Below are positions 3,015 to 52,722 of a DNA stretch of 54,028 bases, in pieces. How positions within the stretch are numbered: position 1 is the first letter of the stretch; each line of letters starts with the position of its first letter. The translations under genes were made by a program, and so were the position numbers. Source of the DNA: a virus (lineage: Duplodnaviria; Caudoviricetes); the IMG/VR virus record IMGVR_UViG_3300006754_000024, positions 1-54,028 of that record; one strand, 5' to 3'. Under the pieces are notes generated by a model. That model was not told the DNA's origin and made no database searches. It worked only from the letters and a program-made list of their open reading frames with translations.

Positions 3015-3269
3015 ATGTCCGATATGAAGCTCAATCATCCCTTACTCGTCCTAAGCCTCACCCATGGAATGGGGAAAATGCGGTCTCTCACCGATCCGTC
3101 GGTATGGGGGAACCCTAAACACGACGCTTTTCTGGGATTCATCGAATGGGACGCGCCCAAGCAGGAGGCGGCCGGATGGTACGAGCTCGGCAAAGGTGCG
3201 GACATCCATATCGTCGATAAGGGCCGACTCCGCTCCGTCCTATTCCAGATGTCAGGGGGCCAGGCATGA
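3015..3269 (+). CDS. Hypothetical protein
   Basis: AAGGAG RBS; coupled to the methyltransferase gene. Confidence 0.65.
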   Translation: MSDMKLNHPLLVLSLTHGMGKMRSLTDPSVWGNPKHDAFLGFIEWDAPKQEAAGWYELGKGADIHIVDKGRLRSVLFQMSGGQA

Positions 3270-3796
3270 GTACGGCCTGGCGCACGTTGTTTCGTTCGGA
3301 GGACCAGGCGTGGAGGACTCCCGCGTGGCTCTTCGACGAGCTCGACTCGGTTTGCGACTTCGAGCTCGACGCCAGTGCCCATCCCGACAACGCGCTATGC
3401 ACTGAGTATCTCACCGAGGAAGATGATGCTCTCGCACGGGACAGCTGGCCAGGCGAGCGGATCTGGCTCAACCCTCCGTATGGGCGTCAAGTAGGCCTCT
3501 TTGTATCCAAAGCATGGGAGCAGTCGGAGCTCTACGGGAAACGAGTCGCGGTGTTGATCTTCGCTCGGACGGATACGGCCTGGTGGCAGGACTTCGCGAT
3601 GCGAGCTCGAGCCATTTTTCTGATACGCGGCCGGCTCCGGTTCCACAAGGCAGACGGAGAGAGGCACGCGGCACCGGCTCCCTCGGCACTTCTGATCTTT
3701 GGTCCGAGCACGGGAGAGCCTACCCAATTCTATGCCTTCGATCGACGCAACCCGGAGGAGTGGAAGAAGAGCCTAAGACAGCACTTTCGAGGTTGA
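3266..3796 (+). CDS. Phage-type DNA N6-adenine methyltransferase (Dam-like)
   Basis: WRTP, FELDASA, WLNPPYG (NPPY catalytic motif), ARTDTAWW, RGRLRF. Confidence 0.9.
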   Translation: MSTAWRTLFRSEDQAWRTPAWLFDELDSVCDFELDASAHPDNALCTEYLTEEDDALARDSWPGERIWLNPPYGRQVGLFVSKAWEQSELYGKRVAVLIFARTDTAWWQDFAMRARAIFLIRGRLRFHKADGERHAAPAPSALLIFGPSTGEPTQFYAFDRRNPEEWKKSLRQHFRG

Positions 3797-8808: not shown

Positions 8809-9096
8809 TTAAAGCAGAAAAACAGCCGCAGGAAGTAGGAGCTCGCGCTCGGTGTCGCCACCGACTCCAGCCGAGCGCCGAACCCGCTCTTTGTCGAGCG
8901 TGCCGGTAGCCAGGCGGGGGAGGCACCCTCGGCACACGAGATAGCTCTCGTGGCGCTGGGTCCTCCCGCTCACTACGGGATGGGTATTGATCATCATGGG
9001 AGAATCGTCGCCGCAGAACTCGCATTCGCAAATGTGGACCTGTCCGGGACCGAACACCTCCACGGCTCTTTCGTGATTAGCGTTTTCAATTTCCAC
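8809..9096 (-). CDS. Small zinc-finger protein
   Basis: CEFC...CRGC; overlaps the helicase stop. Confidence 0.55.
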   Translation of the reverse strand: MEIENANHERAVEVFGPGQVHICECEFCGDDSPMMINTHPVVSGRTQRHESYLVCRGCLPRLATGTLDKERVRRSAGVGGDTERELLLPAAVFLL

Positions 9097-10693
9097 GTCT
9101 GATCTTCCTTATGTTTGAGCAAGCGATAGCATAACCCAGTCGGGCCGACGCTTCCCCCATTGTGGCCTGGTCATCCATTGGCACCTTCCAACGCTCGCAC
9201 GCCTCGATGAGCTTCTTGCTGGCCGGGCGGCGCTTCCACGCAGCATCGGCTCGAGAGAGCACGTTATTGCCGAGCTGCTCCACGATCTTTTCTTCGGTAG
9301 AGCGGGCCACGGTAATGAAGGATCCTCTCGATACAGCCAGGTCGTACTTTCGATCACCCTTGTCCTTCAGAACCAAAGCCAGCCACTCTCCGGCAAGAGA
9401 GCTCGGATCAACTGGACGAAGGACGGCGCACACGGATCCCCAGGATGCGAACCATTCATTACCGAACTCGGACCATCCGGCCGACAGCTTCGACTCTCCG
9501 AGAATGTTCACATGGAAAGCCCGCAGCCCTTCTCCCTTCGGCCGGATCTGCACCTGGCGGACCTGGGGGTTTCCCTCTCCTCCAGCTGGAGCGGCGGCCT
9601 GGCGCTCTTGCTCTCTGCTTAGGTCCGCGAACCCGATGAGTCGGTGGGAGGAACTGTTGAATGTGAAGTCGAGCACTTTCCCGCAGGTCTTACCCGGATT
9701 CAGGCGCGTAACGCGCCCCACCTGTTGCACATACACGACTTGGGACATTGTGGGCCGCACGAGAAGAACGGCTCCGAGCTCGGGACAATCCCATCCCTCG
9801 GTGAGAACCATGCAGTTCGTGAGAACGTCGAGCTCCCCCTTTCGGAACCTGGCGAGCGTGGCTTTCCGTGATTCGGTTCCCATCGCTCCCCAGATGGCCG
9901 CAGCTCGAACTCCGTCGGAACGGAACTGCTGCGCCAAGGACTGCGCATGCAGAACGTCGACGCAGAATGCTACCGCTTTGTCTTTCCCGCAGTATTTTCG
10001 ATAGGCCTGAGAGACGAGTCGATTGCAGTCGGCAGTGTTCACGACTGCGCCGAGTTGTCCTTGGTGGAGCTCGCCGCGATTGCGTTCGACATCGTCGAGG
10101 TCGATCCCGGTCTTGATCGCGTAGGCATCGAGCGGGGAAAGGAACCCGTCCTCTACCGCTTTCACAATCGAATAGGAGAAAGCTACCTTCTGAAACACCC
10201 CACCGAGTCCTCTCTGGTCGCCTCTGTACGGTGTGGCCGTCACTCCGAGCACCTTGCAGTCGGTCCTCTGTTCGGCCGCCCACTTGAGCACCTGGCCGTA
10301 AGTGTTCTCGGCCTGGGCGTGGTGGGCTTCGTCGATCACCACAAAGTCAAACGGGACAGGGATCTGCTCCCGTCGTTTTCGGTGGAGGCTCTGGACGCTG
10401 GCCACCACCAGGCGGCTCTGCCATTCGTTTCGAGATCCCTGCACCACCCCAGGCTCGATTCCGGGGTCGATGCTCCTCCACTTTTCGCATGCTTGCTCGA
10501 TGAGTTCGTCTCGATGAGCGAGTACCAGGCCTCGAGCTCGAGGCTCTGTTCTGAGGATCCGGGAAAGCAAAGATCCGAACAATACCGTTTTGCCTGTTCC
10601 GGTGGGCATCGAAACGAGCACCCTGTCGGACTTCTTCCAGCTTTCCAATACGGCCGCTATTCCTTCCTCTTGGTAGGGTCTGAGGTCCATCAT
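9086..10693 (-). CDS. Superfamily 2 DEAH helicase (Irc3/ResIII-like)
   Basis: LRPYQ, MPTGTGKT, DEAHH, TATP, LTEGWD, QQVGRVTR. Confidence 0.95.
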   Translation of the reverse strand: MMDLRPYQEEGIAAVLESWKKSDRVLVSMPTGTGKTVLFGSLLSRILRTEPRARGLVLAHRDELIEQACEKWRSIDPGIEPGVVQGSRNEWQSRLVVASVQSLHRKRREQIPVPFDFVVIDEAHHAQAENTYGQVLKWAAEQRTDCKVLGVTATPYRGDQRGLGGVFQKVAFSYSIVKAVEDGFLSPLDAYAIKTGIDLDDVERNRGELHQGQLGAVVNTADCNRLVSQAYRKYCGKDKAVAFCVDVLHAQSLAQQFRSDGVRAAAIWGAMGTESRKATLARFRKGELDVLTNCMVLTEGWDCPELGAVLLVRPTMSQVVYVQQVGRVTRLNPGKTCGKVLDFTFNSSSHRLIGFADLSREQERQAAAPAGGEGNPQVRQVQIRPKGEGLRAFHVNILGESKLSAGWSEFGNEWFASWGSVCAVLRPVDPSSLAGEWLALVLKDKGDRKYDLAVSRGSFITVARSTEEKIVEQLGNNVLSRADAAWKRRPASKKLIEACERWKVPMDDQATMGEASARLGYAIACSNIRKIRRGN

Positions 10694-13792: not shown

Positions 13793-14074
13793 ATGCTTTT
13801 GATTGACCTCACATCCGGAATCGCCTCGAGCGATCCGGAGACTGTTCATGTGGAATGGGCGAAGGCCTATGTCGCCGCTCGAGCTCTGCATGAAACTACC
13901 GACCTTTCGGTTTGTATCGTCGTAAAGGACGATTACCACATCGAGGGGCTTGCCCTTACTTACGAAGGGAGAATTCTATGGGCGGTACCGATCGGATATC
14001 CGGAATCCGACATCCAGTGCTTGCTCGCTGATTTCTGCGACTGGATCGACTCTCTCTATCCAGCAGAAGCCTGA
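13793..14074 (+). CDS. Hypothetical protein
   Basis: 93 aa; TGATG-coupled to the recombinase gene. Confidence 0.55.
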   Translation: MLLIDLTSGIASSDPETVHVEWAKAYVAARALHETTDLSVCIVVKDDYHIEGLALTYEGRILWAVPIGYPESDIQCLLADFCDWIDSLYPAEA

Positions 14075-14868
14075 TGCAAGACTTCGCGGCCTACCTCCAG
14101 GCGGAAGGTCTTCAGCCTCGTACCGTCGAGACCTATATTCGGGTAGCGAACCGAGTCTGGGAAGGAGACCCTAAAGGCTGGCTCCAGGAACAACTGCGGG
14201 GAGCTCCGGCGGGTACAGCGTGCGTCTACAAGGCAGCTATTCGCCACTGGTGCGACTTCAACGGCCACGAGCCTTTCAAGATGCCGAGAGGAAAACGGCG
14301 GAAACGGAAGCTACGCCATCCACTGAGTGAAGACGAGCTCCGGGTTTTCTATTCGGAGCTCCTGGTCGAGCCAGACCCGGCGCGTGTCGTTCTCGAGTGC
14401 CTCCCAAGAACCGGGCTCCGAATCAGCGAGCTCTGCAACGCCACGGTGGAGAACCTCACCATGGTTCAAGGCAGGTGGGGTATAGAGGTTCACGGGAAAG
14501 GTGGGCACGAGCGCAGGGTGCCCCTGTCTCGCGGAGCTCAGTCCGCTCTCGAGCGCTACCTCGAATGCACCATCGACGAGCTCAAGGATGCAGACGGGAC
14601 CGGATGGCTTTTTCTGGGTCGCTTCGACGGACCTATAAGCACCAATTGGGTGCGCACCGTGTCGAGGCGCGTGGGAAAACGCATGGGAAGTGTTACTAAT
14701 CCCCATGTGCTTCGGCACACATGGGCCTCGAATGCTCATCGAGCTGGGGTATCATCGACGGAGATTCAGGCCGTACTCGGCCATATATCTCCCATGACAA
14801 CAGCGATATACATTCACTCGGACGCCTCCCAGATGGGGAGAGCGGTCGACCTGGCCGATTTTGATTAG
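14074..14868 (+). CDS. Tyrosine recombinase (XerC/D-like integrase or resolvase)
   Basis: TGLRISEL (R), GKGG (K), HVLRH, LGH, TTAIY (Y). Confidence 0.95.
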   Translation: MQDFAAYLQAEGLQPRTVETYIRVANRVWEGDPKGWLQEQLRGAPAGTACVYKAAIRHWCDFNGHEPFKMPRGKRRKRKLRHPLSEDELRVFYSELLVEPDPARVVLECLPRTGLRISELCNATVENLTMVQGRWGIEVHGKGGHERRVPLSRGAQSALERYLECTIDELKDADGTGWLFLGRFDGPISTNWVRTVSRRVGKRMGSVTNPHVLRHTWASNAHRAGVSSTEIQAVLGHISPMTTAIYIHSDASQMGRAVDLADFD

Positions 14869-26215: not shown

Positions 26216-27451
26216 ATGCCTCGTCGACGAGGACAGCAATACCGTAGGCGCCGTTCGGCATCGAATCCGGTGGCTCGTGCGCGAGCTCTCGTTCGGATTG
26301 CGAAGCGCACCGGACGCCCAGAAGATTCTCAGAAAGCGGTAGCCTTTATAAAGGCGCATCCTCGTCTGATGAGTGTTCCGGACCTGCGGGCCTTCACCAC
26401 CCAGCACACAGGCCAGGCACCAGGACCAGGTTTCAAAGGAATCCGCAGGCGGACACCCAAAGCAGCCTATCGACGCGGTCGATATCGCTGGCTGAACCAG
26501 CCAGGCGGCGGATGGTCTCCACAGACTCCATCCGTCATTCCCCACCAGTTCGAGCCGGCTACCGGATACCCCCAGACTTGGACGGCAGAAGGCGGCGTCG
26601 TTCCAGATCCGCTCGTGTACGAGGACGAGCCGACCAGGGGTCCCATGCTGTGGTCCGAAGACATGGCAACAGCTACACCGCTCGCAGGCTATGGCGCGAA
26701 TGTGGCCGGCAACAGTCCATACGGTGGACGAAAGAGGTGGCTCCGGGACTTCCGGTATAACGACCGGATTCCCTCGGAGTTCGAGGTTCGACAAATGGTG
26801 CGTGATGCCTTGGACCTGTCCTCAGAGATTAACGATCCCTATTCCTGGGGAAGCAAACAAGCCTGGCCGATCGAATGGTTGAGCCTTACTCCACAAGAGC
26901 AAGACGGACTCTTTAGATTCGACAATTACTGGAACCAGACACCGGCTGGTCTGTTGTCTGCCAATGGAGTCATAACCCTTCCTTCACACAGTACATTTAT
27001 GTCGATGATCGGGGGGCCGCATCGGTTAGATGGCTACGGAAAGCTATTCGGAGGAGGGCGACTTCGCGATCGTTTTGGCTACAAACCTCTAGCCCGTAGG
27101 CGATGGCAAAAACAGGTTTTGAAATCCAGAAGGCTAAAGGCTCAACTAGACCGAATGCCTGACAATCATCCGGCCAGAAAGCGGGTTTACCGTCGCTGGT
27201 TGAGAGTGGTAGAAAAACTAAAAACCAATCCCAACACGGTGAACATCACCGAAATAGATGGCACGGAAACAGATGGATTCGGAGCGTTCAACATCTCCTT
27301 CGGAGAGAGTCCTTTCCAGAAGGCTTCTGCTCTCGCCATTCTTGGCGGAACAGCGATGTACTTCCTGTCGAAGAAGAACAAAAGCAAGAAGCAGGGCATG
27401 AACGTCGCGACTCTCGGCGGGGCTGCTTACGCTCTCACCCTGCTCACCTGA
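26216..27451 (+). CDS. Arg-rich modular virion/core protein with a C-terminal membrane hairpin
   Basis: Basic N-terminus; LAGYG, LDGYG and TDGFG motifs; two C-terminal hydrophobic segments. Confidence 0.7.
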   Translation: MPRRRGQQYRRRRSASNPVARARALVRIAKRTGRPEDSQKAVAFIKAHPRLMSVPDLRAFTTQHTGQAPGPGFKGIRRRTPKAAYRRGRYRWLNQPGGGWSPQTPSVIPHQFEPATGYPQTWTAEGGVVPDPLVYEDEPTRGPMLWSEDMATATPLAGYGANVAGNSPYGGRKRWLRDFRYNDRIPSEFEVRQMVRDALDLSSEINDPYSWGSKQAWPIEWLSLTPQEQDGLFRFDNYWNQTPAGLLSANGVITLPSHSTFMSMIGGPHRLDGYGKLFGGGRLRDRFGYKPLARRRWQKQVLKSRRLKAQLDRMPDNHPARKRVYRRWLRVVEKLKTNPNTVNITEIDGTETDGFGAFNISFGESPFQKASALAILGGTAMYFLSKKNKSKKQGMNVATLGGAAYALTLLT

Positions 27452-28663: not shown

Positions 28664-28935
28664 ACCTCGACGCCCGAACCCTGATGACTCTCGGTAGCAA
28701 GCTCCTCCACATTTTGAAGGACGCGAGCCAGCATGTCTCCCAGCTGAACCAGGCAGGGGAGGAGGTCTCGAGAGAGGCGCTCCAGTTCTATATCATGCTG
28801 AGATTCGAGAACTGGAACCCCAAAATCAAAGGGGTGTCGGTTCTGGATGATCAATCTCGAGTCGACGGTGCGGCTTTCCTTGCCGGGATTGCCTTTACAC
28901 TTGCCGCAGGCATGAAGGGACGGAGTGCTGCGTGA
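28660..28935 (+). CDS. Hypothetical protein
   Basis: ATGA coupling; hydrophobic C-terminus. Confidence 0.6.
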   Translation: MNLDARTLMTLGSKLLHILKDASQHVSQLNQAGEEVSREALQFYIMLRFENWNPKIKGVSVLDDQSRVDGAAFLAGIAFTLAAGMKGRSAA

Positions 28936-29510
28936 AGTTCACTCCCCACGGCCGTTCGACCTACGGGACGAACCCCGCCTGGGGTGAGGTTTCCTATGCG
29001 GGCGTATACGGAAACGAGGCCGAGCTCGAGGCCGCACCTGTAGTCGCTCCGGAGGAGCAGCTTTCGGTCCCTCAGCTCATTGAGGCCGTGGTGTTTTCTT
29101 TCCAGACCGTAGGACAGGACGAAGGCTTGCGCGTAGCGGCCGAAAACTCGAGAGGGCAAAGCCCCGCCTTGGTTTTGGCCGCGACGGAGTATATCCGCAC
29201 GCGGAGCCTGAGCCCAGAAGACCTCGAGGCGAGAATCGCGGAGCTCCGAACAGAAGAGAGCCGAGCTCTTCAATCCGGGAACGCTAACGCTGCGCAGATC
29301 GCGTCTTATAAGATTCAGATGCTCCGCCGTCGCCACACGGGAATCGTCGACGAGGGCGAGCTCCAAGGGGTCCGGGACCTGACGGAGATATCGGGCCAGG
29401 CGAACAAATGGAAAGAGAGGCTCCCGCTTATCGGAATCGGAGTAGGCCTGGTTGGACTGATGATCACGCTCGGGGTGGTGAAGGTCCGCAAACGGGGGAA
29501 GAAGGGATGA
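28932..29510 (+). CDS. Tail-anchored membrane protein
   Basis: GTGA coupling; leader ending AGVYG; C-terminal TM plus KVRKRGKKG. Confidence 0.7.
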   Translation: MKFTPHGRSTYGTNPAWGEVSYAGVYGNEAELEAAPVVAPEEQLSVPQLIEAVVFSFQTVGQDEGLRVAAENSRGQSPALVLAATEYIRTRSLSPEDLEARIAELRTEESRALQSGNANAAQIASYKIQMLRRRHTGIVDEGELQGVRDLTEISGQANKWKERLPLIGIGVGLVGLMITLGVVKVRKRGKKG

Positions 29511-42200: not shown

Positions 42201-42607
42201 TGCCTATTTTGGCCGATATCTCCCAAGCTGGGCCACCCGCCTCGAGTGGGACTGCCACCTGGTACCAGGAAGTCCTTCTCAACGCAGGCGGAGCTTTCAA
42301 CAGCCAGGCCTTGATGGTGCCCGCGCTCCCCGCGCTCACCTTTTGGGCTGAGGTCTTCAATGCGGGTGGCGTCGCCGTTACGCTTCAACCTCAGTTCGCT
42401 GCTCGAGGAACGACTAATGTGGTCTTGGGACAGCCCAACCCGGTTCCCACCTGGTTAGACCTGGCTCCGCCCGTCCTGATCCCCGCGTTCGGTGGCGGAG
42501 TAACTCTCAACAACTACATCTGCCCGTGCGTCTGGATCCGGATGGTGCTCACTCGAACCGCCGCCGTAAACACCAGTGTCCGCCTCTACATGGCTGGGAG
42601 CGTGTGA
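42200..42607 (+). CDS. Small beta-rich structural protein (penton/vertex candidate)
   Basis: TAATG coupling; 135 aa; hydrophobic beta strands. Confidence 0.5.
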   Translation: MPILADISQAGPPASSGTATWYQEVLLNAGGAFNSQALMVPALPALTFWAEVFNAGGVAVTLQPQFAARGTTNVVLGQPNPVPTWLDLAPPVLIPAFGGGVTLNNYICPCVWIRMVLTRTAAVNTSVRLYMAGSV

Positions 42608-45195
42608 TGCCTGGCTACAAGATCGTCCTTCGCAAAAACGGAGCCAAGCGTGGAGAGCTCACCGGCTACGCCACCAAGAGCTCGGCCGTCGCAGAGGCTC
42701 AGACCCTCGCTGACAGCGCCGGAGGCGGAGTCAAGGTGTACGTGGAGCCGGTGAAGGCCAAAGCCAACAGGAAGGCTCCCAGGCGTCGAAATACGCAGTT
42801 AAAAAGGGACCAGAAGGTAAAACTGAGCGATTCCGCTCTCTCCCGGAGGTACTCTGGCGATCGAGCTAAAGGAAAGCAGTGGCGGGGTACTATATTTGAA
42901 GTGGTCGGACCGCCAGGAAGTGGGGCGGGAGAATGGGGAGCCGAGATGTGGTCCGCCAACGGAGAAAAGGGGTACATCGTCGTAAACCAAACGGATCCTC
43001 ATGGGAGGTGGTACGCATTAGGAGATGTGGTCGCCGCATCCACCGCCACTAAGAAGGCTCCCAGGCGCAAGAAGAATAGCGACAGAGAGCTCGTCGCCTT
43101 CCCCGGAATAAGGAGGCCATCGGACTATCCGGGAGGAAAAAACAGCTACGACGAGGACTTCTTCCAGGGATACCGGGCCGGAGAGAAGGCCTTGGCTCGC
43201 AAACGCAAGACCCCTCTTTCGGGGGTGGACGCCGAGAGGTACTTTCGCAGGTATGGACATGGGCATGGTAGCTGGTGGATCAACGGATTCCGTGCCGCTA
43301 TCGCTGTGGACCGTGGAGAATATGCGACGAAGGACTACAAGATAGCGGTAAAGGTGGGCCTGGTTCATCCTCCGGGACGTTTCAATCCTAAGCGGAAGAA
43401 CAGGAAGACGAAGCACCGTCCAGGAAGCGCGAAGACCCCAGCTGGTTTTCTCTCCACCGAGGGCCAGAAGCTCGTGGTGAGGTCGAATATCACAGGGAAT
43501 ATCCTTCCTAAGAGCTGGACCGGGTTCGCTTTCAGCTTGGACGGAGACTCGGTCATGAAGATCGGGCGTTCGGGGGGCGAGCGTTCCTACGAGGTGGCCA
43601 AGCGGATTCGGAGATCGAACACCAGGAAGAACCCGACAACGGCCGAGGTCGCCAAGCTCGCAAAATGGCAGAACCTAACTGGGCTCTCGAAGTCGAAAAT
43701 CGACAAGCTCGCACAGGAAGCCTATCGCATGGGCGATGTAGGCCACATGAGCACGCTCCAGCTCGGGAAACACTTTTCTCGGTTCCTCCCCGCCAAGTCG
43801 AAGAGCACGCACACCAACCTGAGAGGATGGGGAGACTTTCTCTTCGAGCTCGGATGGTTGGAGCTCCCGCACCTTCCGCGTAAGAACCAGGGCTATGATC
43901 AAACCAAAAAGGTTCTTCAGCAGGCGTCTAAACTCATCGACCAGGGCAAATTCAAACAGGCCGATTCCTTAATCCGTGGTTCGGGTGGAAGCAGGGCAGA
44001 CCTATCGAATATTTTGGGCTCGTCCAGAATGAAGAAGATGGCAACCTGGGCTAGCGGTACCACCAGGCGGAAAAACTATTCGACTGGCGACGCCTGGCTC
44101 CAAGAGGCCGACACGGAAATGGAGGAGGAAGGCACCGTCGGAGCCTTCACCAAGCAGGCCAGGCGAGCCGGGTACAAGGATACAATGGCCTTCGCTCGAG
44201 CCGTCATGAAGGGCTGGCGGAGCGGGAAGAAAAAGGTCTACAACAAGAAGACCAGAAAGCAGCAAGGGATCACCCAAAAAACGATGTACCGGGCCAACTT
44301 CGCGATCAATGCTCAGAAGCGGCGGAATCCCCACGGAGCGCCCCAACGCATGACAATGGACCTGGGCGAATTCAGGTGGATCGCTGGCCCCTACTCGACC
44401 GTCGGGAAGGCAAACAAGGCGAAGGAAGCCTCTCACCATCGATCCTGGGGCGCCAGGTACCCCAAGACCTACACGCGCGTAAGGAAGGAAGGAGGCGCCT
44501 ACCATGTCTATTCTTACGATCCAGAGGTTGCCTCTCGTTACAACCCAGCATGGGGCGAGATGGCCGGCGCGGTAGGAAAGGGGCTCGGAAAGGCCGGCAA
44601 AGCCGCCTGGAAGGGCGCCAAGCGAGGAGCCCAGTACGGCTACGAGTACGGAAAGGAAGGAGCCGCTCGCGGAAAGGAGACGGCACAGGCGGCCGTGATC
44701 GCTGCCAACCTGAAGGACTTTCAGAGATGCGCCAAGAAGCTCCACATCACTCCGGGAGAGCTCCAACAGCTCGAGCCCTATGTCGACGCCATCGACAAGG
44801 CGCAGGCCCATATCGAGTCGACCCAAGAACGGCGCTCCTCGAGGGGAGCTCAGAGACAGACTGCTCTCGCCAAGAAATGGAACGGGAAGCGTCGGAATTC
44901 AACGCCTGGAAAACGTGGGTGGCACCCGGTACTTTTCGGCTCGAATCTGATAATCTCAGGTGTCGGCCGGGATACGAATGGGAACAAGGTCATCAAAGTT
45001 AGTTACCCCAACTCGAGAGCCTGGTCGATCCAGACTCTCGGAACGCCGATGCACGGGCTCTTGCGGGGCGTTACAGCGAGATATGAAATCCTGCCGGACA
45101 TCTCGAGCGCCATCGAGCCCATGCTCATCGACCACATCCGAAAGTACGGATCTGCAAAGCAAAAGAAGGGACTACGAGTCTACTCCGGCGGGTAG
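42607..45195 (+). CDS. Basic modular polyprotein of ~10 small modules separated by [RK][RK]N/NP
   Basis: TGATG start at 42607; delimiters every ~60-120 aa. Confidence 0.75.
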   Translation: MPGYKIVLRKNGAKRGELTGYATKSSAVAEAQTLADSAGGGVKVYVEPVKAKANRKAPRRRNTQLKRDQKVKLSDSALSRRYSGDRAKGKQWRGTIFEVVGPPGSGAGEWGAEMWSANGEKGYIVVNQTDPHGRWYALGDVVAASTATKKAPRRKKNSDRELVAFPGIRRPSDYPGGKNSYDEDFFQGYRAGEKALARKRKTPLSGVDAERYFRRYGHGHGSWWINGFRAAIAVDRGEYATKDYKIAVKVGLVHPPGRFNPKRKNRKTKHRPGSAKTPAGFLSTEGQKLVVRSNITGNILPKSWTGFAFSLDGDSVMKIGRSGGERSYEVAKRIRRSNTRKNPTTAEVAKLAKWQNLTGLSKSKIDKLAQEAYRMGDVGHMSTLQLGKHFSRFLPAKSKSTHTNLRGWGDFLFELGWLELPHLPRKNQGYDQTKKVLQQASKLIDQGKFKQADSLIRGSGGSRADLSNILGSSRMKKMATWASGTTRRKNYSTGDAWLQEADTEMEEEGTVGAFTKQARRAGYKDTMAFARAVMKGWRSGKKKVYNKKTRKQQGITQKTMYRANFAINAQKRRNPHGAPQRMTMDLGEFRWIAGPYSTVGKANKAKEASHHRSWGARYPKTYTRVRKEGGAYHVYSYDPEVASRYNPAWGEMAGAVGKGLGKAGKAAWKGAKRGAQYGYEYGKEGAARGKETAQAAVIAANLKDFQRCAKKLHITPGELQQLEPYVDAIDKAQAHIESTQERRSSRGAQRQTALAKKWNGKRRNSTPGKRGWHPVLFGSNLIISGVGRDTNGNKVIKVSYPNSRAWSIQTLGTPMHGLLRGVTARYEILPDISSAIEPMLIDHIRKYGSAKQKKGLRVYSGG

Positions 45196-45201
45196 TTCGG
45201 A

Positions 45202-48200
45202 ATGATCGAAGAACTCAAAAAGCGGATACGGAACGCTGGCACAGAGAGCTCGGAAAAACGAGAAGTACAGCGCGAGCTCGAGAGCCATGGACACCGGAAA
45301 CATCCAGAGTCCCACCAGGCCACCCTCGAAGACCGCAGGGTGGTACGCATGTACCTATGGAGGGCTACCCCGCTGGGGCACCTCTGCCTGGTTACCGGTC
45401 CCAGCGTGGAGCCCAGTCTCTACGAGCTCTACGAGGCCGCTCCAGGAGAAGAGCCCTCAGAGGTTTACTTCCCTTCAAAGCGAGGCAAGCCGGCTCTCAC
45501 CGTTCGCACGAATCCCCAGGCCCGAGTAGGCAAGGTCCGAGAGGCTAAGGACGGTAGCAAATACGTGCTTTGGAGGCCCGTATTAGCGGACGGCAGCCGA
45601 CCTCGCGTGTATCTGGACGCCGAGGAGCCGGGGATTGACGCCGAGCTCATAGATGTGATGGAAGCTCAGGAACAGCTGGCAGCTGGAAAGAGAGCGGTGG
45701 AGCGTCGCGTAAAGGAAGCCAAAAAGGAAGGGAAGCGGGGTATTTTCAAGGGAGGCTCCGGACGGAAGATCATAACTGGAGCTCCGAAGGCTAAGCCCAT
45801 GGAGCGGGCCGCCTCTCGCACGCCTCTTTTTGACTCTGAGGGAAAGGAATATCTCGCTACATATATGGTAATCCCAGCCCACAGGGACGGGATGGGAGAC
45901 CTTCGATCCTCGAACCTACCTGGTTCCTTCGAGGAGACTCCCCACTACCCCACCGTCTTCCAAGCCCGAAGCCTACAGCGACTCGGAGAGACGCGGAAGA
46001 TCGAGAAGATTGCCGCCAACCTGGACGCGGAAAGAGTTCTCCTCCCGCACAGCGATGCCACCCTGGGCACCCCGGTGGTCTGGGAGGGAGACGATAAAGA
46101 GCACAGAATCGCTGGAGAGCAAGTCTATACCCCGAAAGGCACCTACTATGTGCTGGGTGGGAACGGACGAGCAATCGCGATCCTGATGGCCCCCACGGGG
46201 AAATATCAGTCCTACTCGAGACGGGGAAGGTCTCTCTGGTCCGACGTGTGGCCCGCTGGGAGCTCTCCAGCTGGCACGAGAGACGTTCTGGTCCGCCTGG
46301 CCACCAAGCCCGACGGAACGCCACTGTCCTTCGCTCAGGCCCGTACTCTTGCGGGACGAACCCAGAAGAGCGCTTCTGGAGAAGAGTCTCCCATCGGAAA
46401 GGCTCTCTCGCTCATCCGTTCACTCGGCATCGAGCGCGTGGCCGATCTCCCGCCTTTTGTCTGGAAGGGGATAATCACCCAGGACAATGTGGAAGAGTTC
46501 CAGGAGTTCAATCCAGCCTTTGCGAGAGCGGTGTTTGCTTCGATGGGGGCAGCTCGAGCAGAGAGCTACCAGCAGGACTCGGCGCTTCTCGCTACGCTCT
46601 TCAACGACATTATGGTCGGCTACCTTCCCAGGCGCTTCCAGCTCCAAGGGTTCGTTTCTGAGAAACAGGAGCGAGCTCTACTCGCCGCTCTTCCTATTAT
46701 CGTCGCGATCCACCAGGGAGTTCAGGATCGATCGGTCCAAGACAAATGGGACCTTTTCCCGTTGCTCGATGCGGCTTCTCGTTTCGCCCAGGCAATCAAG
46801 AACAAGTCGGATTCGCAGGCGATTGCCATGGTCGAGGCCGCTGCCTCTCAGATTCAGATGGGCGAAGGCACGGGAATAGCGGAGAAGTTCAAGTCTCTGT
46901 TCGACGAACTCCCTCTCTTGGGTGTTTTGTTCGGCCTGGTCCTCAAGAAAGCAGAGAAGTCTCGCGACCCGGCATTGACGGTAGAGAAATACCTCACCCC
47001 CTACGCTGCCGCAGCATTCGATCCCGGAGAGAGCGCTGCCCAGTCGGGACTGTTTGCGGCTCCAGGCCGTCCCGATGCCGGCAAAGACCCCACCGAGATC
47101 CTTGCTACCGAGCTCGGCGTCCGCCTACCGCGCCGGATGCGCGAGGCGACGGTGGAGCAGGGGCGGTTGATCGCGAATCCCAAATTCCCCATGGGAGGAG
47201 AAAAAAAGCCGTGGGCTCCGGCGATGGTCGAGGCCATCGACCAGTTCCCGGTGGGCGCCATCGTCAAGCTTCGACCAACGCAGGGGTGGAGTCGCACATT
47301 CCCTCATCGGATCCTCTCCGATTCCGTCCTCGATAACCACTACCGGGTCGGAACCCACACCTGGATGGAGAACCTCCAGAGCGTATTCCTGGAGACGGAC
47401 CCCGTACACCCTGAGACTCACGAGCTACTGAGGGATAGTCGTGGTGGCAAGTACAACTACCAGGTGCTCGGTACCGAGGATGTGGAGCTCGTCTGGAGCC
47501 CAGAGCCAGAGCCGGACCCGGAGGAGAGCCAACAACGCCTCTTGAACCGGAAAGGACAGCTCCGCTTGCGGAAGGCCGGGAGCAGGATCCTCGAGGAGCT
47601 CTACCTACGCGGCCCTACCCCCTACGCTGAGACTCCCGAAGGAAAGCTCGCTGATGGACCGCAAGAGCTCCTCGATAAAGGGCTGGCGTCGAAGAAGACG
47701 TGCATCGCAGCTGAACATACCCTTTACGACCGGGAGACCTGTGTTCTGCGCCTGACGAAGAGGGGAAGGGACTACGCGAAGAATCGCCGTAGAGCCGAGC
47801 GCACGCACCAGGCCGCCAGGCAGGGGAAGCTGTGGAACAAAGGCCCCCACTATTTCGATGAACTCGGAGAGCTCGGAGCTCCGTCGATTGGTGAGAAGGG
47901 GTACAAGCCGGCTCCCGATTTCGGCAACGCCTACGGAGGGCAGACACCCTACGAGCTCGCGGACCGCCTGGTGGGGAACGCTGAGGTATTGATGGAAGAG
48001 CCCGAGCTCTACTGGGCCTACTGTGCCGAGCTCCCGGAGGCTTGTGGAGGCCTGGCCGATTCGGATTTCTCCTTAGCGGATATGCTTCAAGTCCCTTTTT
48101 CCGGTCCGGACGGAAAGCGAATGACTGAAGCGGAGCGGGCGGGAATTGCGCTTTCTGCCCTGGCCGTCACTGCGGAAGCGCTGCCTGACAGGTGGAGCGG

Positions 48201-51200
48201 AGAGAAGATCATACTCGGCGAGAGAAAGAGCAGGAAGGGACCCACTACCTTGATCGAGGCTCGAAGAGGCGACTCCGGGGAGGTTCCGATGTGGGCTGCG
48301 ACTGCGGCCCTTACCGACTGGCTGGCCTCGCTGGTTCCCGGCTATTCCCAGGTCTTGCGCCTGGTTAACATCGACAAGAAGACAGCACAGGACTTCATCG
48401 AGAAGCACCACTCGGCGCTCCCCTACCTAAACGCTCGTGGCCTGCTCTTTGCCCTTGGATTGATGAAGGGCTCCCGCCTGGTGGCCGTAGCGACGGTTAA
48501 CTCGAATACGGCCAACCTGAGCAAGACCCGTAGGGTATTGAGCGGCGAGCTCGACGTGAAAGATGTCCTCGAGCTCACCCGTGTGGCATCGGATGGGAGC
48601 GTAAAGGGGGCTGCGTCGAAGCTCGTGGCCCGTGTGATCGATATCATGGAGCAGGGCAAGCGGAGCGGAGGCGACGCACCCGCGCTCCTAATGACTTACC
48701 AGCTCGCTACCGAGTCTGGAACGACCTACAAGGCCTTGAAGGACAAGGGATTGAGGCCCGTGGCAGAGGTAAAGGGCTCAGCTCCGAGCGGAGCTCGTGG
48801 TGGAGACCCGGCCGAAGACCGAGCTCTGGCACAGGTGGACAAAATACGATGGGAGTGCTGCGTCGACCCTCCCGCGATGCGGGCGGACTGGGACATCCTG
48901 GGACGCGAGCAGAAGACTCTCTGGAACCCGAAGGAAGGGGAAACCTCCTGGTTCAAGGGGGATCAGGTTCGATTCACGGGTGCCCAGAGCGAACATGATG
49001 GGTTCTGGCAGGCCGTCTATATTGACGGGCACCGGAAAGGCCAGATCGTCTGGGTCTACCCTGAACATGCAGGCGTTCGGATGCTCCACGGAGAAGAAAA
49101 ACTCCAGCCCCGCGACAATCCGAAGAAGTCTCCGCCTGGCTCCTTCAAGTCCTGGGAAGAATACTATCTGTGGAAGATGAACGGGATCAACAGAGCCATG
49201 CTGATCACGGAAGACGCTATCCGAAGCATGGACCCGGAGCGAGCCAACATGCCCGGTGGCGCGGTGGCCCACTACCGCACCCTCGAGAAGAAACGCCGCG
49301 ATCTCCTCGAGCACATGGAGCTCGCAGGGGTGAAGCTCAGGAACCCCGGAGAGCCAGAGGACCGGTTCGCCCCCTTCCTGAACGCAAAGGTGGGCCAGGT
49401 GTTTCTGGTTAGGGCTACGGACTATCCTGGAGCTCCGAAACGGAAATGGATGAAAGACACGCTGCTGGCCTATCGGGTCTACAAAAAGCCCGATATCTCG
49501 GCGGTCGCGCCCTACCTTATCGACCCGGAGGGCGCTGAGATCGAGGTCGAGCCGGTAGGCGGCACGAAGGGACGCGACGGAACCTTCCTAATCCGACCCA
49601 ATTTTGAGAAAGATAAGCTCCGCACTATGATCCTCCTCCGGGATAAAAACGGCCACCATGTGACGGGGCACCCCATCGAGTTCGTCCGCCATGCTGCCGG
49701 CCACTTGGATCTACCCGCTGAGAGCTCGGGCCAGACGGTGATGTTCAACCCCGAAGAAGCACCCGGCCAGGTAGAGTTCGAGTTCCTGGGAGCGGTGCCC
49801 GTTCTTCACTTTGCCTCTGGGACGAACAGGCCTGGAAGTATCCGGGGATTCGCAGACCTGGGCAAAGCCGTGGGCTCTGCCTTCGCCTCTGTAGACAAAA
49901 AGTCCGGCCGCTGGGTTCGCGAATGTCGCGGACCCTGTCTCGAGGAGCTCGCTCGAGCCGCTTCGTTGGGTATACCGGTGTTTCTGGATTCAGGTGCATT
50001 TAGCGAGGTCGACTTCCCCGAAGACGGTCCGCCAGTTGTAGCGGTGCCCATACCAGAAGAGAGCTGGGCCGAGAGGTTCGATGTCTATCGTTACCTGGCC
50101 GACGCGGGAGGGAAACTGGCCAACGTGGTAGCGCCCGACATGGTAGGCCACCAGGTGGAGAGCTTTCAACGCCTATCCGCCTACAAAGACGAGGTGAACG
50201 AGCTCCTGGATATGGGCGCATCGGTTCTCGTGCCGCTCCAGTTAGGCCCGATTCCGCTTCACGAATATCACGACCAGGTCGACGAGCTCCTGGGCCGGAA
50301 GGACTGGATCCCAGCTCTTCCGTTCCAGAATGCGGCTACCTCCCCTACGCAGCTGGGAGAATACCTGCGCAAAAAGACTCCAGTTCGTCTTCATCTCCTG
50401 GGAATAGGACCCAGGAAGAAAGCAGCTACAGCCGTGGCTCAAGAGATCAGAGAGAACTCTCCGGGTACCCAGGTACAGATGGACAGTGTGGTGATCAAGG
50501 CGCACGTAGGGCGCAAGAGACGGAAGACCGGAGATCCTCGAGGGGAGATAACAGCTGCTCAAGACGAGGCTCGAGAGCAGCTGCTCGAGGAACGCTACAT
50601 CGGCTCCCAGCGAGAGTCCGTTCCTGACTACACGGACCTGGTAGGAATGCCGAGCTCCTGGGCATCCGAGGCGGCACTGAAGCGACTCTCGAGTGCGGCC
50701 CAACTCTCGAGCTCGGAGCGGAAAGAGCTCATCGCCGACCCCGACGAGTTCTTCCAGCGCGAAACCTTCGCTGGCATCGATCACGGGATCCCGTTCTACC
50801 TCGAGCTCGAGCAACCTATTGAGCTCGAGCTCGGTAAGCGTTTCCACTCTCTCGAGACTTTCGAGGCCCAACGCATGGGAATCCGAGAGGGGCTCAAGGG
50901 AATCTACCCAGGGGGCCAGGAATACATTACCAACCCGGAGCAAGAAGAGGGGCACGTTCCGGGAATCGACACTCCGGGACATCCCGGACTTCAGATGGGT
51001 CTTTTCGGTGGTGCATCCTATTCGGACGAGCAAACCGCATCGCCTGGCAGAATAACTATCTTGAACATGGGACTTGGCCGCGACTCGCTCACCATGCTCT
51101 GTCTGCTCGCAGATGGAGAGCTCGTCTGGGACGGTAAGAAACACGGACCCGAAGACGTGGACGCCGTCGTGTTCTCCGATACAGGCGGAGAATGGAAGCA

Positions 51201-52722
51201 CACCATGGACCTAATTCCGAAGGTCGAGAAGTTTGCCAAGAAGCACGGCATCCGATGGCTCAACCTTCAGAAGCCACAGGCAGGCACTAAGAGCGGAGAA
51301 CTACGCGACAGCTGGCTCCAGGCCATGAAAACAGCGAGACAAGATCGAGAGCAAGGATGGGCCGAAGTATATCGGGAAGTGATTGCTCCGATGTACCGCG
51401 AAAAAGATGTCCGGCTCGATGAGATCCGCGCCGAAAAGAAGGCGGAGATCAAAGAGAAAAGAGCCGAGCTCAAGAACCAGGGAATGGACAAGGATCAGAT
51501 GGCACCGGAGCTCGACGCTATCAGAGAGAAATACGCCGTCAGGATGAAGGCTCTCAAAAAGAAGTACAAGGCCAAGGCTGCGGAGATCAAAAAGGAAGGA
51601 GGATTCGCAGGGAAGGCGGAGCGTGCGTGGTGGGCTCCTCAAGACAAGGAGCGGAGGCTCCACTATGGCACCATCGAAGAGCGAGCGGCTGCGGGTGTCT
51701 ATCACTTGCGCCCTGAGATCCTGGTGGACTTCGCCTGGAAAGGAACGATCCCCCTCCGCGACGATAAGAGCTGCACGGGAAACCACAAGGTGGCTCCGAT
51801 TCGGAAGGTGACAGAGGACCTGGCCATCGAAAAGTTCGGCCCATGGGCTACTAATACTAAGTGGGGGAGCGAGGTCCGTGACAAGAAGCGCCTTCCTCAC
51901 TTGAATCTGATCGGTCTCGCCGCCGACGAAACTGACAGGCTCGCGAAAGGGGGAGACGTGGGCTGCTTCGAGGCGAGCTACGTTACCGAGGCCTACCCGT
52001 TGGAGGAGATGGGAATCGCGAAAAACGACGAGCAGCCCTATCTCGATAGCTGCGGATTCGGAGAGACTCGAAAAAGCGGGTGCTGGCTGTGCCCCTACCA
52101 ACCTCTCGGATGGTGGTGGGCGCTCTCTGTCCTTCATCCGGACAAGTTCGAGCGGGCAGCACAGGCGGAGTACCAGGCGACACTCCGGGATCCAAAGCTC
52201 TATTTCATCGGACGCAAGAAGAAGGGGAAGTCTCTGTCGCTGGCCGAGGCGGTAAAGGTATGGAGAGAAGAGAATCCAGACGCCTCTCCGGAAGAAGTGC
52301 TCGACAAGCAATATGCAAAGTGCAAGGTGAAGTTTGGGAAGAAGAAGAACCCAGTAGCACCCGACTCCTGCTGTCCCGACTGCAACCGATTCGTGGACCT
52401 ATGGAACCAGTTCGGAGAACCTGGATGGCTAGAACGCTACGGCTCGAGCTCGAGCACCAGGCCCAACACTCCGGCGTCTGGGGTTCTCGTCAACACGGGA
52501 AGCAAGCTGTCGATTCAAAGCCTTTCCTTCGATCGAGCTCTATTCAACAAGACCGAGGCGACGCGCTGGGCCAGGCAGCACGGGTTTTCGGTTCCGAAAG
52601 TCCACCTGACACCGAACCTGATTAAGATACGCCAGACTCATCCCTCCAAGTTCAAGCGCGGATCGTTCCGAACCAAGTCACTGACAGAAGGAGTAAAGGC
52701 AATTGTAGGAGTTCCACGATGA
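45202..52722 (+). CDS. 2506-aa polyvalent protein with ParB-like, Mom-like GNAT, TGT/DpdA-like and PAPS-reductase-like domains
   Basis: YPTVFQAR/GTPVVW/GGNGR (ddrB-like ParB); AQDFIEKHH/LELTRVASDG/TYQLATESG (Mom/XF1762-like); FLDSGAFS/APD/PLQ/HLLG (TGT fold); MGLGRDS/FSDTGGE/YPL/KSGCWLCPY (PP-loop). Confidence 0.85.
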   Translation: MIEELKKRIRNAGTESSEKREVQRELESHGHRKHPESHQATLEDRRVVRMYLWRATPLGHLCLVTGPSVEPSLYELYEAAPGEEPSEVYFPSKRGKPALTVRTNPQARVGKVREAKDGSKYVLWRPVLADGSRPRVYLDAEEPGIDAELIDVMEAQEQLAAGKRAVERRVKEAKKEGKRGIFKGGSGRKIITGAPKAKPMERAASRTPLFDSEGKEYLATYMVIPAHRDGMGDLRSSNLPGSFEETPHYPTVFQARSLQRLGETRKIEKIAANLDAERVLLPHSDATLGTPVVWEGDDKEHRIAGEQVYTPKGTYYVLGGNGRAIAILMAPTGKYQSYSRRGRSLWSDVWPAGSSPAGTRDVLVRLATKPDGTPLSFAQARTLAGRTQKSASGEESPIGKALSLIRSLGIERVADLPPFVWKGIITQDNVEEFQEFNPAFARAVFASMGAARAESYQQDSALLATLFNDIMVGYLPRRFQLQGFVSEKQERALLAALPIIVAIHQGVQDRSVQDKWDLFPLLDAASRFAQAIKNKSDSQAIAMVEAAASQIQMGEGTGIAEKFKSLFDELPLLGVLFGLVLKKAEKSRDPALTVEKYLTPYAAAAFDPGESAAQSGLFAAPGRPDAGKDPTEILATELGVRLPRRMREATVEQGRLIANPKFPMGGEKKPWAPAMVEAIDQFPVGAIVKLRPTQGWSRTFPHRILSDSVLDNHYRVGTHTWMENLQSVFLETDPVHPETHELLRDSRGGKYNYQVLGTEDVELVWSPEPEPDPEESQQRLLNRKGQLRLRKAGSRILEELYLRGPTPYAETPEGKLADGPQELLDKGLASKKTCIAAEHTLYDRETCVLRLTKRGRDYAKNRRRAERTHQAARQGKLWNKGPHYFDELGELGAPSIGEKGYKPAPDFGNAYGGQTPYELADRLVGNAEVLMEEPELYWAYCAELPEACGGLADSDFSLADMLQVPFSGPDGKRMTEAERAGIALSALAVTAEALPDRWSGEKIILGERKSRKGPTTLIEARRGDSGEVPMWAATAALTDWLASLVPGYSQVLRLVNIDKKTAQDFIEKHHSALPYLNARGLLFALGLMKGSRLVAVATVNSNTANLSKTRRVLSGELDVKDVLELTRVASDGSVKGAASKLVARVIDIMEQGKRSGGDAPALLMTYQLATESGTTYKALKDKGLRPVAEVKGSAPSGARGGDPAEDRALAQVDKIRWECCVDPPAMRADWDILGREQKTLWNPKEGETSWFKGDQVRFTGAQSEHDGFWQAVYIDGHRKGQIVWVYPEHAGVRMLHGEEKLQPRDNPKKSPPGSFKSWEEYYLWKMNGINRAMLITEDAIRSMDPERANMPGGAVAHYRTLEKKRRDLLEHMELAGVKLRNPGEPEDRFAPFLNAKVGQVFLVRATDYPGAPKRKWMKDTLLAYRVYKKPDISAVAPYLIDPEGAEIEVEPVGGTKGRDGTFLIRPNFEKDKLRTMILLRDKNGHHVTGHPIEFVRHAAGHLDLPAESSGQTVMFNPEEAPGQVEFEFLGAVPVLHFASGTNRPGSIRGFADLGKAVGSAFASVDKKSGRWVRECRGPCLEELARAASLGIPVFLDSGAFSEVDFPEDGPPVVAVPIPEESWAERFDVYRYLADAGGKLANVVAPDMVGHQVESFQRLSAYKDEVNELLDMGASVLVPLQLGPIPLHEYHDQVDELLGRKDWIPALPFQNAATSPTQLGEYLRKKTPVRLHLLGIGPRKKAATAVAQEIRENSPGTQVQMDSVVIKAHVGRKRRKTGDPRGEITAAQDEAREQLLEERYIGSQRESVPDYTDLVGMPSSWASEAALKRLSSAAQLSSSERKELIADPDEFFQRETFAGIDHGIPFYLELEQPIELELGKRFHSLETFEAQRMGIREGLKGIYPGGQEYITNPEQEEGHVPGIDTPGHPGLQMGLFGGASYSDEQTASPGRITILNMGLGRDSLTMLCLLADGELVWDGKKHGPEDVDAVVFSDTGGEWKHTMDLIPKVEKFAKKHGIRWLNLQKPQAGTKSGELRDSWLQAMKTARQDREQGWAEVYREVIAPMYREKDVRLDEIRAEKKAEIKEKRAELKNQGMDKDQMAPELDAIREKYAVRMKALKKKYKAKAAEIKKEGGFAGKAERAWWAPQDKERRLHYGTIEERAAAGVYHLRPEILVDFAWKGTIPLRDDKSCTGNHKVAPIRKVTEDLAIEKFGPWATNTKWGSEVRDKKRLPHLNLIGLAADETDRLAKGGDVGCFEASYVTEAYPLEEMGIAKNDEQPYLDSCGFGETRKSGCWLCPYQPLGWWWALSVLHPDKFERAAQAEYQATLRDPKLYFIGRKKKGKSLSLAEAVKVWREENPDASPEEVLDKQYAKCKVKFGKKKNPVAPDSCCPDCNRFVDLWNQFGEPGWLERYGSSSSTRPNTPASGVLVNTGSKLSIQSLSFDRALFNKTEATRWARQHGFSVPKVHLTPNLIKIRQTHPSKFKRGSFRTKSLTEGVKAIVGVPR

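Follow-up and report, generated by a model that had tools for sequence, protein, structure and literature searches.

A candidate beta-clamp-binding-type motif at the module ends of an Asn-delimited phage polyvalent protein

The window analysed here is the whole of a linear viral record of 54,028 bases (IMG/VR record IMGVR_UViG_3300006754_000024, Caudoviricetes). It contains one giant open reading frame (ORF) for a polyvalent DNA-modification protein, in which ParB-like, Mom-like, tRNA-guanine transglycosylase (TGT)-like TIM-barrel and PAPS-reductase-like modules are joined to seven others (11 modules in all, numbered M1 to M11; Table 1). Short peptides of the form Q-x-x-hydrophobic-hydrophobic recur at the ends of these modules, many of them immediately before an Asn that marks the module boundary. 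The peptides are non-random, they are conserved in type and not in sequence, and they recur independently of the Asn. Our best reading, held tentatively and a little short of evenly balanced, is that the Q motif is a tether of the type that binds the bacterial sliding (beta) clamp, and that the Asn, usually followed by Pro, is a boundary that is probably a processing site. Clamp binding, cleavage at the Asn and a role coupled to replication are what we infer from sequence comparison.

All nine Q motifs listed in a first-pass annotation of the window are recovered by translation and a regular-expression scan, and all lie within the single 2506-residue frame. The annotation placed them directly before the Asn delimiters, which holds for five motifs and, with one Ala between, for a sixth (QGRLIA-N); QSGLF, QVEFEF and QMGLF have no Asn next, as the annotation itself stated. 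The pattern Q..[LMI][FWLIT]A?N (a dot being any residue) occurs six times in the giant ORF versus a mean of 0.08 in residue shuffles of the same ORF (0 of 1000 shuffles reach six), and Q..[LM]F occurs three times versus 0.30 (2 of 1000 shuffles); the looser form Q..[LM][FWL] has six sites. The control patterns E..[LM]F, F[LM]..Q and Q..[LM]A show no enrichment in the giant ORF, nor is Q..[LM]F enriched in 18 other ORFs of the window (1 versus 0.91 expected in 7864 residues). The regular expression was fitted after the sites had been seen, and independent support therefore comes from conservation in homologues.

A search of 5.8 billion protein clusters gives 11 homologues of comparable length (1637-3424 residues), which with the window ORF make up a family of 12 proteins. 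The homologues contain the same modules in differing order and number, framed at the N-terminus by a constant module of about 100 residues and at the C-terminus by another of about 70. In the window ORF, where the module borders are BLAST breakpoints against the homologues, an Asn stands at each of the 10 boundaries, and the next residue is Pro in eight and Arg or Lys in two; the last boundary, N2383, is uncertain because the sequence after it occurs in every PAPS-like module. N659-P660, N879 and Q874 are invariant in an alignment of eight sequences (A1), and N659 (N555 in the numbering of alignment A3) and the Pro after it are likewise invariant in the ten sequences of A3. The Asn-Pro dipeptide (NP) occurs 10 times in the giant ORF versus 3.5 expected (0 of 1000 shuffles). 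The “Asn delimiters” of the first-pass annotation are thus real module boundaries, as judged from the breakpoints and the invariant Asn, and the chain would probably be cut there. Among relatives of M2, which are encoded at 27 metagenome loci, only the two closest (L002 and L003 of L002-L028, at 65% identity) retain an Asn after their Q motifs; where the identity is 45% or lower, the ParB-like relatives are found in ORFs of 550-2479 residues that have few NP and no junctions of Q motif plus Asn. Only a narrow lineage therefore has the Asn-delimiter system. Ribosome skipping of the 2A type was rejected as an account of the NP sites: no NPGP occurs, and NP is followed in turn by Q, A, K, K, K, G, E, E, D and V. 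The literature searched contained nothing on phage polyproteins with Asn-Pro junctions.

Proteins that use the clamp bind a pocket between domains II and III of DnaN. The clamp-binding motif (CBM) has the consensus Q-aliphatic-x-[L/M]-[F/L] or Q-aliphatic-x-[L/M]-x-[F/L] and sits in a loop or in a disordered terminus (N or C), according to PMC11139829. In ten of the homologues, Q..[LM]F occurs 45 times versus 3.5 expected, with flat controls, and the strict clamp pentamer 26 times versus 3.5. The 62 distinct Q..[LM][FWL] sites of the family are most often followed by Asn (27 sites, with Pro after the Asn in 22), Gly (12) or Ala (8). At the Mom-like module, the Q motif lies 18 residues after an IRWE motif in all nine family members that have the module.

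Within the family the motif and the delimiter are separable. The 12 proteins hold 103 distinct NP contexts outside domains. These comprise Q-x-x-hydrophobic-hydrophobic-N (19), the Q motif with an Ala inserted (7), a hydrophobic pair without Q (1), basic sequences such as KKNP and RRNP (31) and others (45). The Q motif is thus present at 26 contexts and absent from 77, and is therefore not needed for a junction. When a hydrophobic pair directly precedes NP, a Gln is found at position -5 in 19 of 20 cases; given this coupling and the separate types of context, a separate element fits better than the subsite preference of a protease.

These counts bear on an alternative in which a processing protease, or an Asn-Pro self-cleavage reaction, cuts the polyprotein after the Asn, and in which the Q with the hydrophobic pair serves as the upstream (P6-P2) portion of the recognition site and has no clamp function. 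We consider this unlikely. It would account for the adjacency of motif and Asn (five window sites, plus the one with Ala, and the 27 family sites given above), for the invariance of both Q874 and N879, and for the behaviour of the Mom-like module described below. Asn-Pro self-cleavage, as in asparagine peptide lyases, has precedents in the NPTH loop of FlhB/YscU and in N42-P43 of reovirus mu1. The junctions also lie within flexible linkers in AlphaFold 2 (AF2) models, where QGRLIA-NP, QQRLL-N and QTVMF-NP fall in stretches with a predicted local distance difference test (pLDDT) score below 62; for the QGRLIA-NP region the score is below 50, and for the QTVMF-NP stretch it is 40-61 in model 2, model 1 having been built on an 8-sequence alignment. 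The 77 NP contexts without a Q motif stand against this alternative, however, as does the lack of any peptidase family in the giant ORF or its modules (Pfam, PHROG and NCBIfam; seven modules are without identity) or in the Pfam annotation precomputed for the 11 homologues. Moreover, self-cleavage usually requires a conserved fold around the Asn, whereas the flanks in the window ORF differ at each junction.

Proteins outside the family separate the two elements further. A full HMMER search with the PAPS-like module gives 477 relatives (E up to 0.001), among which 16 distant polyproteins of at least 800 residues lie outside the family and share the PAPS-like module only. In these, Q..[LM]F occurs 26 times versus 1.8 expected (about 14-fold; 0 of 200 shuffles), and for the strict clamp pentamer the count is 21 versus 2.6; the residue after the motif is G, A, D or K, with Asn in two cases versus 0.45 expected. 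The sites read QLELF, QLALF, QLDLF, QLSMF, QLGLF and QAELF and are spaced by about 50 to 800 residues, mostly several hundred, and one protein ends in RQGLLF. An enrichment of this size without Asn again argues against the cleavage-site alternative. In three distant polyproteins (P0062, P0088 and P0078) a longer linker sequence, L-x-K-A-[ED]-Q-L-x-L-F, is repeated at intervals of several hundred residues, with at most three copies in a protein; it may be the counterpart of the Q-x-R-L-F-N-P of the window family.

The same peptides are found at the very ends of stand-alone relatives. C-termini of M9-like proteins read VQLGLFA, VQLALL, VQLALGL and VQLELF, those of PAPS-like proteins read GQLEMF, AQLALFS and EQLQLFA, and N-termini of other relatives begin MSQSLLFE, MTTQPTLFD, MTNQLSLLD, MTQLNLFS and MTQQLSLSL. 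For M9-like proteins, Q..[LM]F is present in 11 of 114 stretches of the first 25 residues and 5 of 114 of the last 25, versus 1 of 1377 interior windows, and for PAPS-like proteins in 6 of 82 of the last 25 versus 4 of 1046 interior windows. A leader Q motif is present in 17 of 88 M9 relatives (alignment A2). At the extreme end of a protein there is nothing to cleave off, and the cleavage-site reading therefore fails at these termini.

At individual module ends, the motif type is kept while the sequence drifts (33-65% identity). The site equivalent to QSGLF reads Q-x-G-[LM]-F-G-[GAS] in eight of the 12 metagenome ORFs with a placeable anchor (27 loci), and three more of the 12 have the variants QMGFL, AMSMF and QTGLDF; the form Q-x-G-[LM]-F-G-G persists in the M2 tail down to 33-45% identity. 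The start of M9 reads QVEFEF, QLRLGL, QLELL, QLSLDL, QLQLV, QLPMF, QTKLF and QVALF across the window ORF and seven homologues, and the M10 leader site is QLGLF, QTGLY, QIGLF or QMGLF in P0003, P0004, P0009 and P0010. Conservation of type with drifting sequence is, in this comparison, the behaviour of a short linear binding motif. The first-pass annotation had named conservation in homologous modules as a check, and the motif proves to be conserved in type and more general than the annotation knew. The annotation's opposing case, a motif that is only a protease recognition sequence or is not conserved, fits poorly with conservation in type, enrichment without Asn and presence at stand-alone termini.

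In a further account, very unlikely in our view, the motif does nothing specific: it is a hydrophobic cap left on a helix or strand where a module ends, or a trace of the recombination between short conserved linkers by which the cassettes were shuffled. The modules are clearly shuffled, the M4 motif extends a C-terminal helix and QVEFEF of M9 touches the first strand, all of which such an account would explain. It sits poorly with the coupling of Gln to the hydrophobic pair (the 19 of 20 contexts above), with the flat E..[LM]F and reversed controls, and with the retention of motif type through sequence change. The codons at the junctions differ between sites (AAT/AAC, CCC/CCG/CCA and CTC/CTG/TTG), and selection therefore acts on the peptide and not on a DNA linker; a conserved linker that drives recombination is ruled out in the same way, as nothing is shared beyond about 6 bases.

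The resemblance to clamp motifs proposed by the first-pass annotation stands in part. Known bacterial clients of the clamp (Pol II, Pol IV, Pol III alpha and Hda, in the descriptions available) use the same type of 5-6-residue peptide at a terminus or in a loop, and the conserved Q-x-x-[LM]-[FWL] peptides resemble the CBM. QVEFEF differs at position 4 only (F for L/M), and its equivalents and other homologous sites include QLGLF, QLSLDL and QLALGL. The differences from these clients are that most window copies carry Gly or a polar residue in the second position, in many cases with Arg or Lys in the third and with W, I or T as the last residue; that the invariant Asn-Pro comes next; that up to nine motifs occur in one polypeptide; and that the carriers are DNA-modification modules. 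The literature searched contains no link between a clamp motif and polyvalent proteins or DNA-modification enzymes. A predicted complex of Escherichia coli DnaN (DPO3B_ECOLI) with M4 (residues 782-879), made without controls, has ipSAE values of 0.00 and 0.01 (mark, 0.34) and speaks neither for nor against binding.

Several observations weigh against the reading of the Q motif as a clamp tether. The strict pentamer is matched by one motif, QMGLF, among the nine of the window, and the hexamer form by none; the second residue is G, Q, K, T, E or S, several motifs close with W, I or T, and the fit is poor for QEYIT and QGRLI-A. Arg occupies position 3 in 22 of the 62 family sites, and this Arg, together with the Asn-Pro after the motif, is family-specific and looks like an extended site of another kind. 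Accessibility in the AF2 models is mixed: the junction motifs lie in low-confidence linkers or at a helix end, between domains that fold with confidence, as would suit a binding peptide, but QVEFEF lies partly within a short strand, where the block pLDDT rises from 61 to 91. The Mom-like module has a Q motif in 13 of 21 proteins in which another module follows, versus 2 of 26 stand-alone ends, one of the two being inside the domain; the motif here tracks the polyprotein context, which fits a junction signal. As for the counts themselves, those in the homologues include inherited copies. The leader motif is absent from 62 of the 88 M9-like relatives (A2), starts of metagenome ORFs may be miscalled, and most cases of an N-terminal motif belong to one subfamily, so that there are fewer independent gains than the counts suggest.

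The departure of the window motifs from the strict consensus would also fit a motif that docks to a partner other than the clamp, such as the constant M1 and M11 modules, which would keep processed modules together, a component of the virion or packaging machinery, or a host chaperone. We think this quite unlikely. M1 and M11 flank the variable cassettes in most homologues, and polyvalent proteins have been proposed to be packaged and injected (PMC5512222, as far as its available text goes). On the other side, stand-alone bacterial relatives without M1 or M11 have the same terminal motif, and the best-conserved versions (QLGLF, QLALGL and QLSLDL) are textbook clamp motifs.

Under the clamp-tether reading, the polyvalent protein consists of about 11 modules in a row that fold independently of one another, most of them binding or modifying DNA, and that are shuffled among relatives as cassettes. 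An invariant Asn, with Pro after it in most cases, marks each cassette border within a flexible linker, as a putative processing site, and many modules bear a discrete Q-x-x-[LM]-[FWL] at one terminus or close to it, in the family often right before the Asn. The peptide would act as a clamp-binding tag or a close functional analogue and would tether the modules, cut or uncut, to the clamps of the host where phage DNA is replicating, and the new DNA would thus be modified at once. The first-pass annotation had proposed that each released enzyme carries its own tag; this is too strong, as a Q motif is found at six of 10 junctions and near a terminus in seven of 11 modules. A bolder form, possible but doubtful, is that phage polyvalent DNA-modification proteins and their stand-alone TGT-, PAPS-reductase- and ParB-like relatives are unrecognised clients of the clamp, with cassettes that in the window family end in Q-x-R-[LM]-F-Asn before a Pro, so that a cut after the Asn would free C-terminally tagged enzymes; the virus would then have a “tool-belt” that couples hypermodification to host forks. 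The DNMT1-PCNA pair of eukaryotes is comparable to such clamp-tethered modification. How phages put bulky modifications on every new genome before host nucleases act is poorly understood. If the reading were true, DNA modification would be coupled to replication through the host sliding clamp, a large and unexpected class would be added to the clamp's clients, there would be a reason for unrelated enzymes to be strung in one polyprotein, and the Asn(-Pro) delimiters would be a new and simple processing code in polyproteins of bacterial viruses.

The protein resembles the polyvalent proteins that Iyer et al. (2017) describe from phages and conjugative elements in being a giant phage polypeptide with many unrelated enzymatic domains, including a DdrB-like ParB. 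In the available text of that paper (PMC5512222), polyvalent proteins have 2-15 biochemically disparate domains in one phage or plasmid polypeptide, and domain release by embedded peptidases is proposed, a peptidase being present in about 36% of them; the window ORF differs from some of these in having no embedded peptidase found by family scans. The Asn(-Pro) delimiters and the Q-x-x-L-F linker motif are features of the window family that are not met in that text, and the words “clamp”, “DnaN” and “replisome” have no occurrence in the main text as available. The MuC protein of phage Mu recruits the host beta clamp through a CBM (PMC12867686, in the part available) and is thus a phage user of the motif like the one proposed here, but it is one transcription activator, not a polyprotein or an enzyme that modifies DNA. 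T4 is a further phage-clamp precedent in the literature available. The self-cleaving proteins share with the window family a candidate scissile bond from Asn to Pro and a conserved Asn at the boundary, but they have one conserved catalysing fold, whereas the roughly 100 family junctions have unrelated flanks and low-confidence linkers.

Table 1. The giant ORF of the window, its modules and the Q motifs and junctions within them (positions in the window; residues of the 2506-residue protein)
Feature	Position	Strand	Description
Giant ORF	45202..52722	+	One open frame, 2506 residues; polyvalent multi-module DNA-modification protein
M1, constant N-terminal module	45202..45513	+	Residues 1-104; ends VRT-N104, then P; no Q motif
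M2, ParB/DdrB-like	45514..47178	+	Residues 105-659
QSGLF in M2 tail	47041..47055	+	Residues 614-618; 41 residues ahead of the junction Asn
QGRLIA-N659-P660, M2/M3 junction	47158..47181	+
M3	47179..47547	+	Residues 660-782; ends QQRLL-N782 (47530-47547)
M4, small helix-strand module	47548..47838	+	Residues 783-879; ends QGKLW-N879 (47821-47838)
M5, Mom-like	47839..48927	+	Residues 880-1242; ends QKTLW-N1242-P (48910-48930)
M6 and M7	48928..49344	+	M6, residues 1243-1306; M7, residues 1307-1381
M8	49345..49752	+	Residues 1382-1516; ends QTVMF-N1516-P (49732-49752)
M9, TIM barrel	49750..50934	+	Residues 1517-1911; QVEFEF (from residue 1523; 49768-49785) at start, QEYIT-N1911-P (50917-50937) at end
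M10, PAPS-reductase-like	50935..52512	+	Residues 1912-2437; leader QMGLF-GG (50992-51006)
M11, constant C-terminal module	52513..52719	+	Residues 2438-2506; in 8 of 11 homologues

The modules differ in how clearly they can be assigned. M2 matches PF18763 at 20-21 bits, below the cut-off of 27.6, and homologues P0005-P0008 and P0011 have precomputed matches to that family. M5 matches PF25680, phrog_1384 and NF045478 (the NCBIfam XF1762 family, 6.9e-10), and M10 matches phrog_424 (1.7e-12) and, weakly, PF01507. M9 has no sequence match in Pfam, PHROG, NCBIfam or the PDB. Its AF2 model is a TIM barrel (pLDDT 90.4), for which the best solved structures in Foldseek are TGTs (4hqv, E 5.5e-7; TM 0.34-0.37, a weak match); old-yellow-enzyme barrels are among the fold matches too. 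A “DpdA-like” label for M9 was dropped, as it has no sequence-family support and the weak TGT fold match alone is left. The set of a ParB-like module, a TGT-like barrel and a PP-loop/PAPS-reductase-like module presumably resembles the DpdB/DpdA/QueC-type parts of 7-deazaguanine DNA modification. The homologues also have S-adenosylmethionine methyltransferase (PF13489) and C5-cytosine methylase (PF00145) domains.

For the smaller modules, M4 is read from its AF2 model as winged-helix-like, with a pLDDT of 88-95 in the core; a long helix at its C-terminus ends in QGKLW-N, in a block with a pLDDT of 74. M3 has no family match (pLDDT 30-49), M8 has no clear counterpart among the 11 family homologues in the BLAST map, and the M6/M7 stretch has a weak SH3_2 match only. 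The junctions at the ends of M6 (PRD-N, then P) and M7 (KLR-N, then P) are without a Q motif. Neither M1 nor M11 matches Pfam or PHROG; the ESM Atlas gave nothing usable for M1 and only viral hypothetical proteins for the C-terminal 100 residues. These two constant modules might target, package or process the giant protein.

The record is estimated to be about 35% complete. Elsewhere in the window are an integrase (14074-14868, + strand; phrog_1, 6.4e-39), a DNA methyltransferase (3266-3796, +; phrog_111, 2.2e-47) and a helicase (9086-10693, -; phrog_16, 4.5e-85), and the element is probably temperate. The majority of the window ORFs have no family match in profile scans, and structural families were not recognised in the ORFs next to the giant ORF. 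PolA, PolB, PolIII-alpha and DnaN families were not found in the record, of which about two-thirds of the genome is missing; because it is only about 35% complete, an absence of polymerase and clamp genes is not claimable, and the lack of a viral DNA polymerase, on which the first-pass annotation relied, cannot be maintained. Searches with the giant ORF (tblastn) and with 24 kb of the window (megablast) against 50,697 phage records gave no match, and a peptide-pattern scan found none in viral contigs and 36 pattern matches in genome contigs, none of them a relative.

NP dipeptides are also common outside the giant ORF. The ORF directly upstream (42526-45195, +; 889 residues) matches no family and has about 10 sites in which basic residues precede Asn (RRRN, RKKN, RKN, RRKN and KRRN), four of which continue to NP (4 versus 1.4 expected; 57 of 1000 shuffles); judged by these sites, it may be a second Asn-delimited polyprotein. 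In 16 other window ORFs of at least 258 residues, NP is enriched about 2-fold (19 versus 9.9 expected; 8 of 1000 shuffles). This excess hints at an Asn-directed processing signal that would be virus-wide. Several window ORFs have a basic-x-NP sequence near the N-terminus, such as RRRRSASNP at residue 17 of 26216-27451, and in 28932-29510 an NP is found at residue 14.

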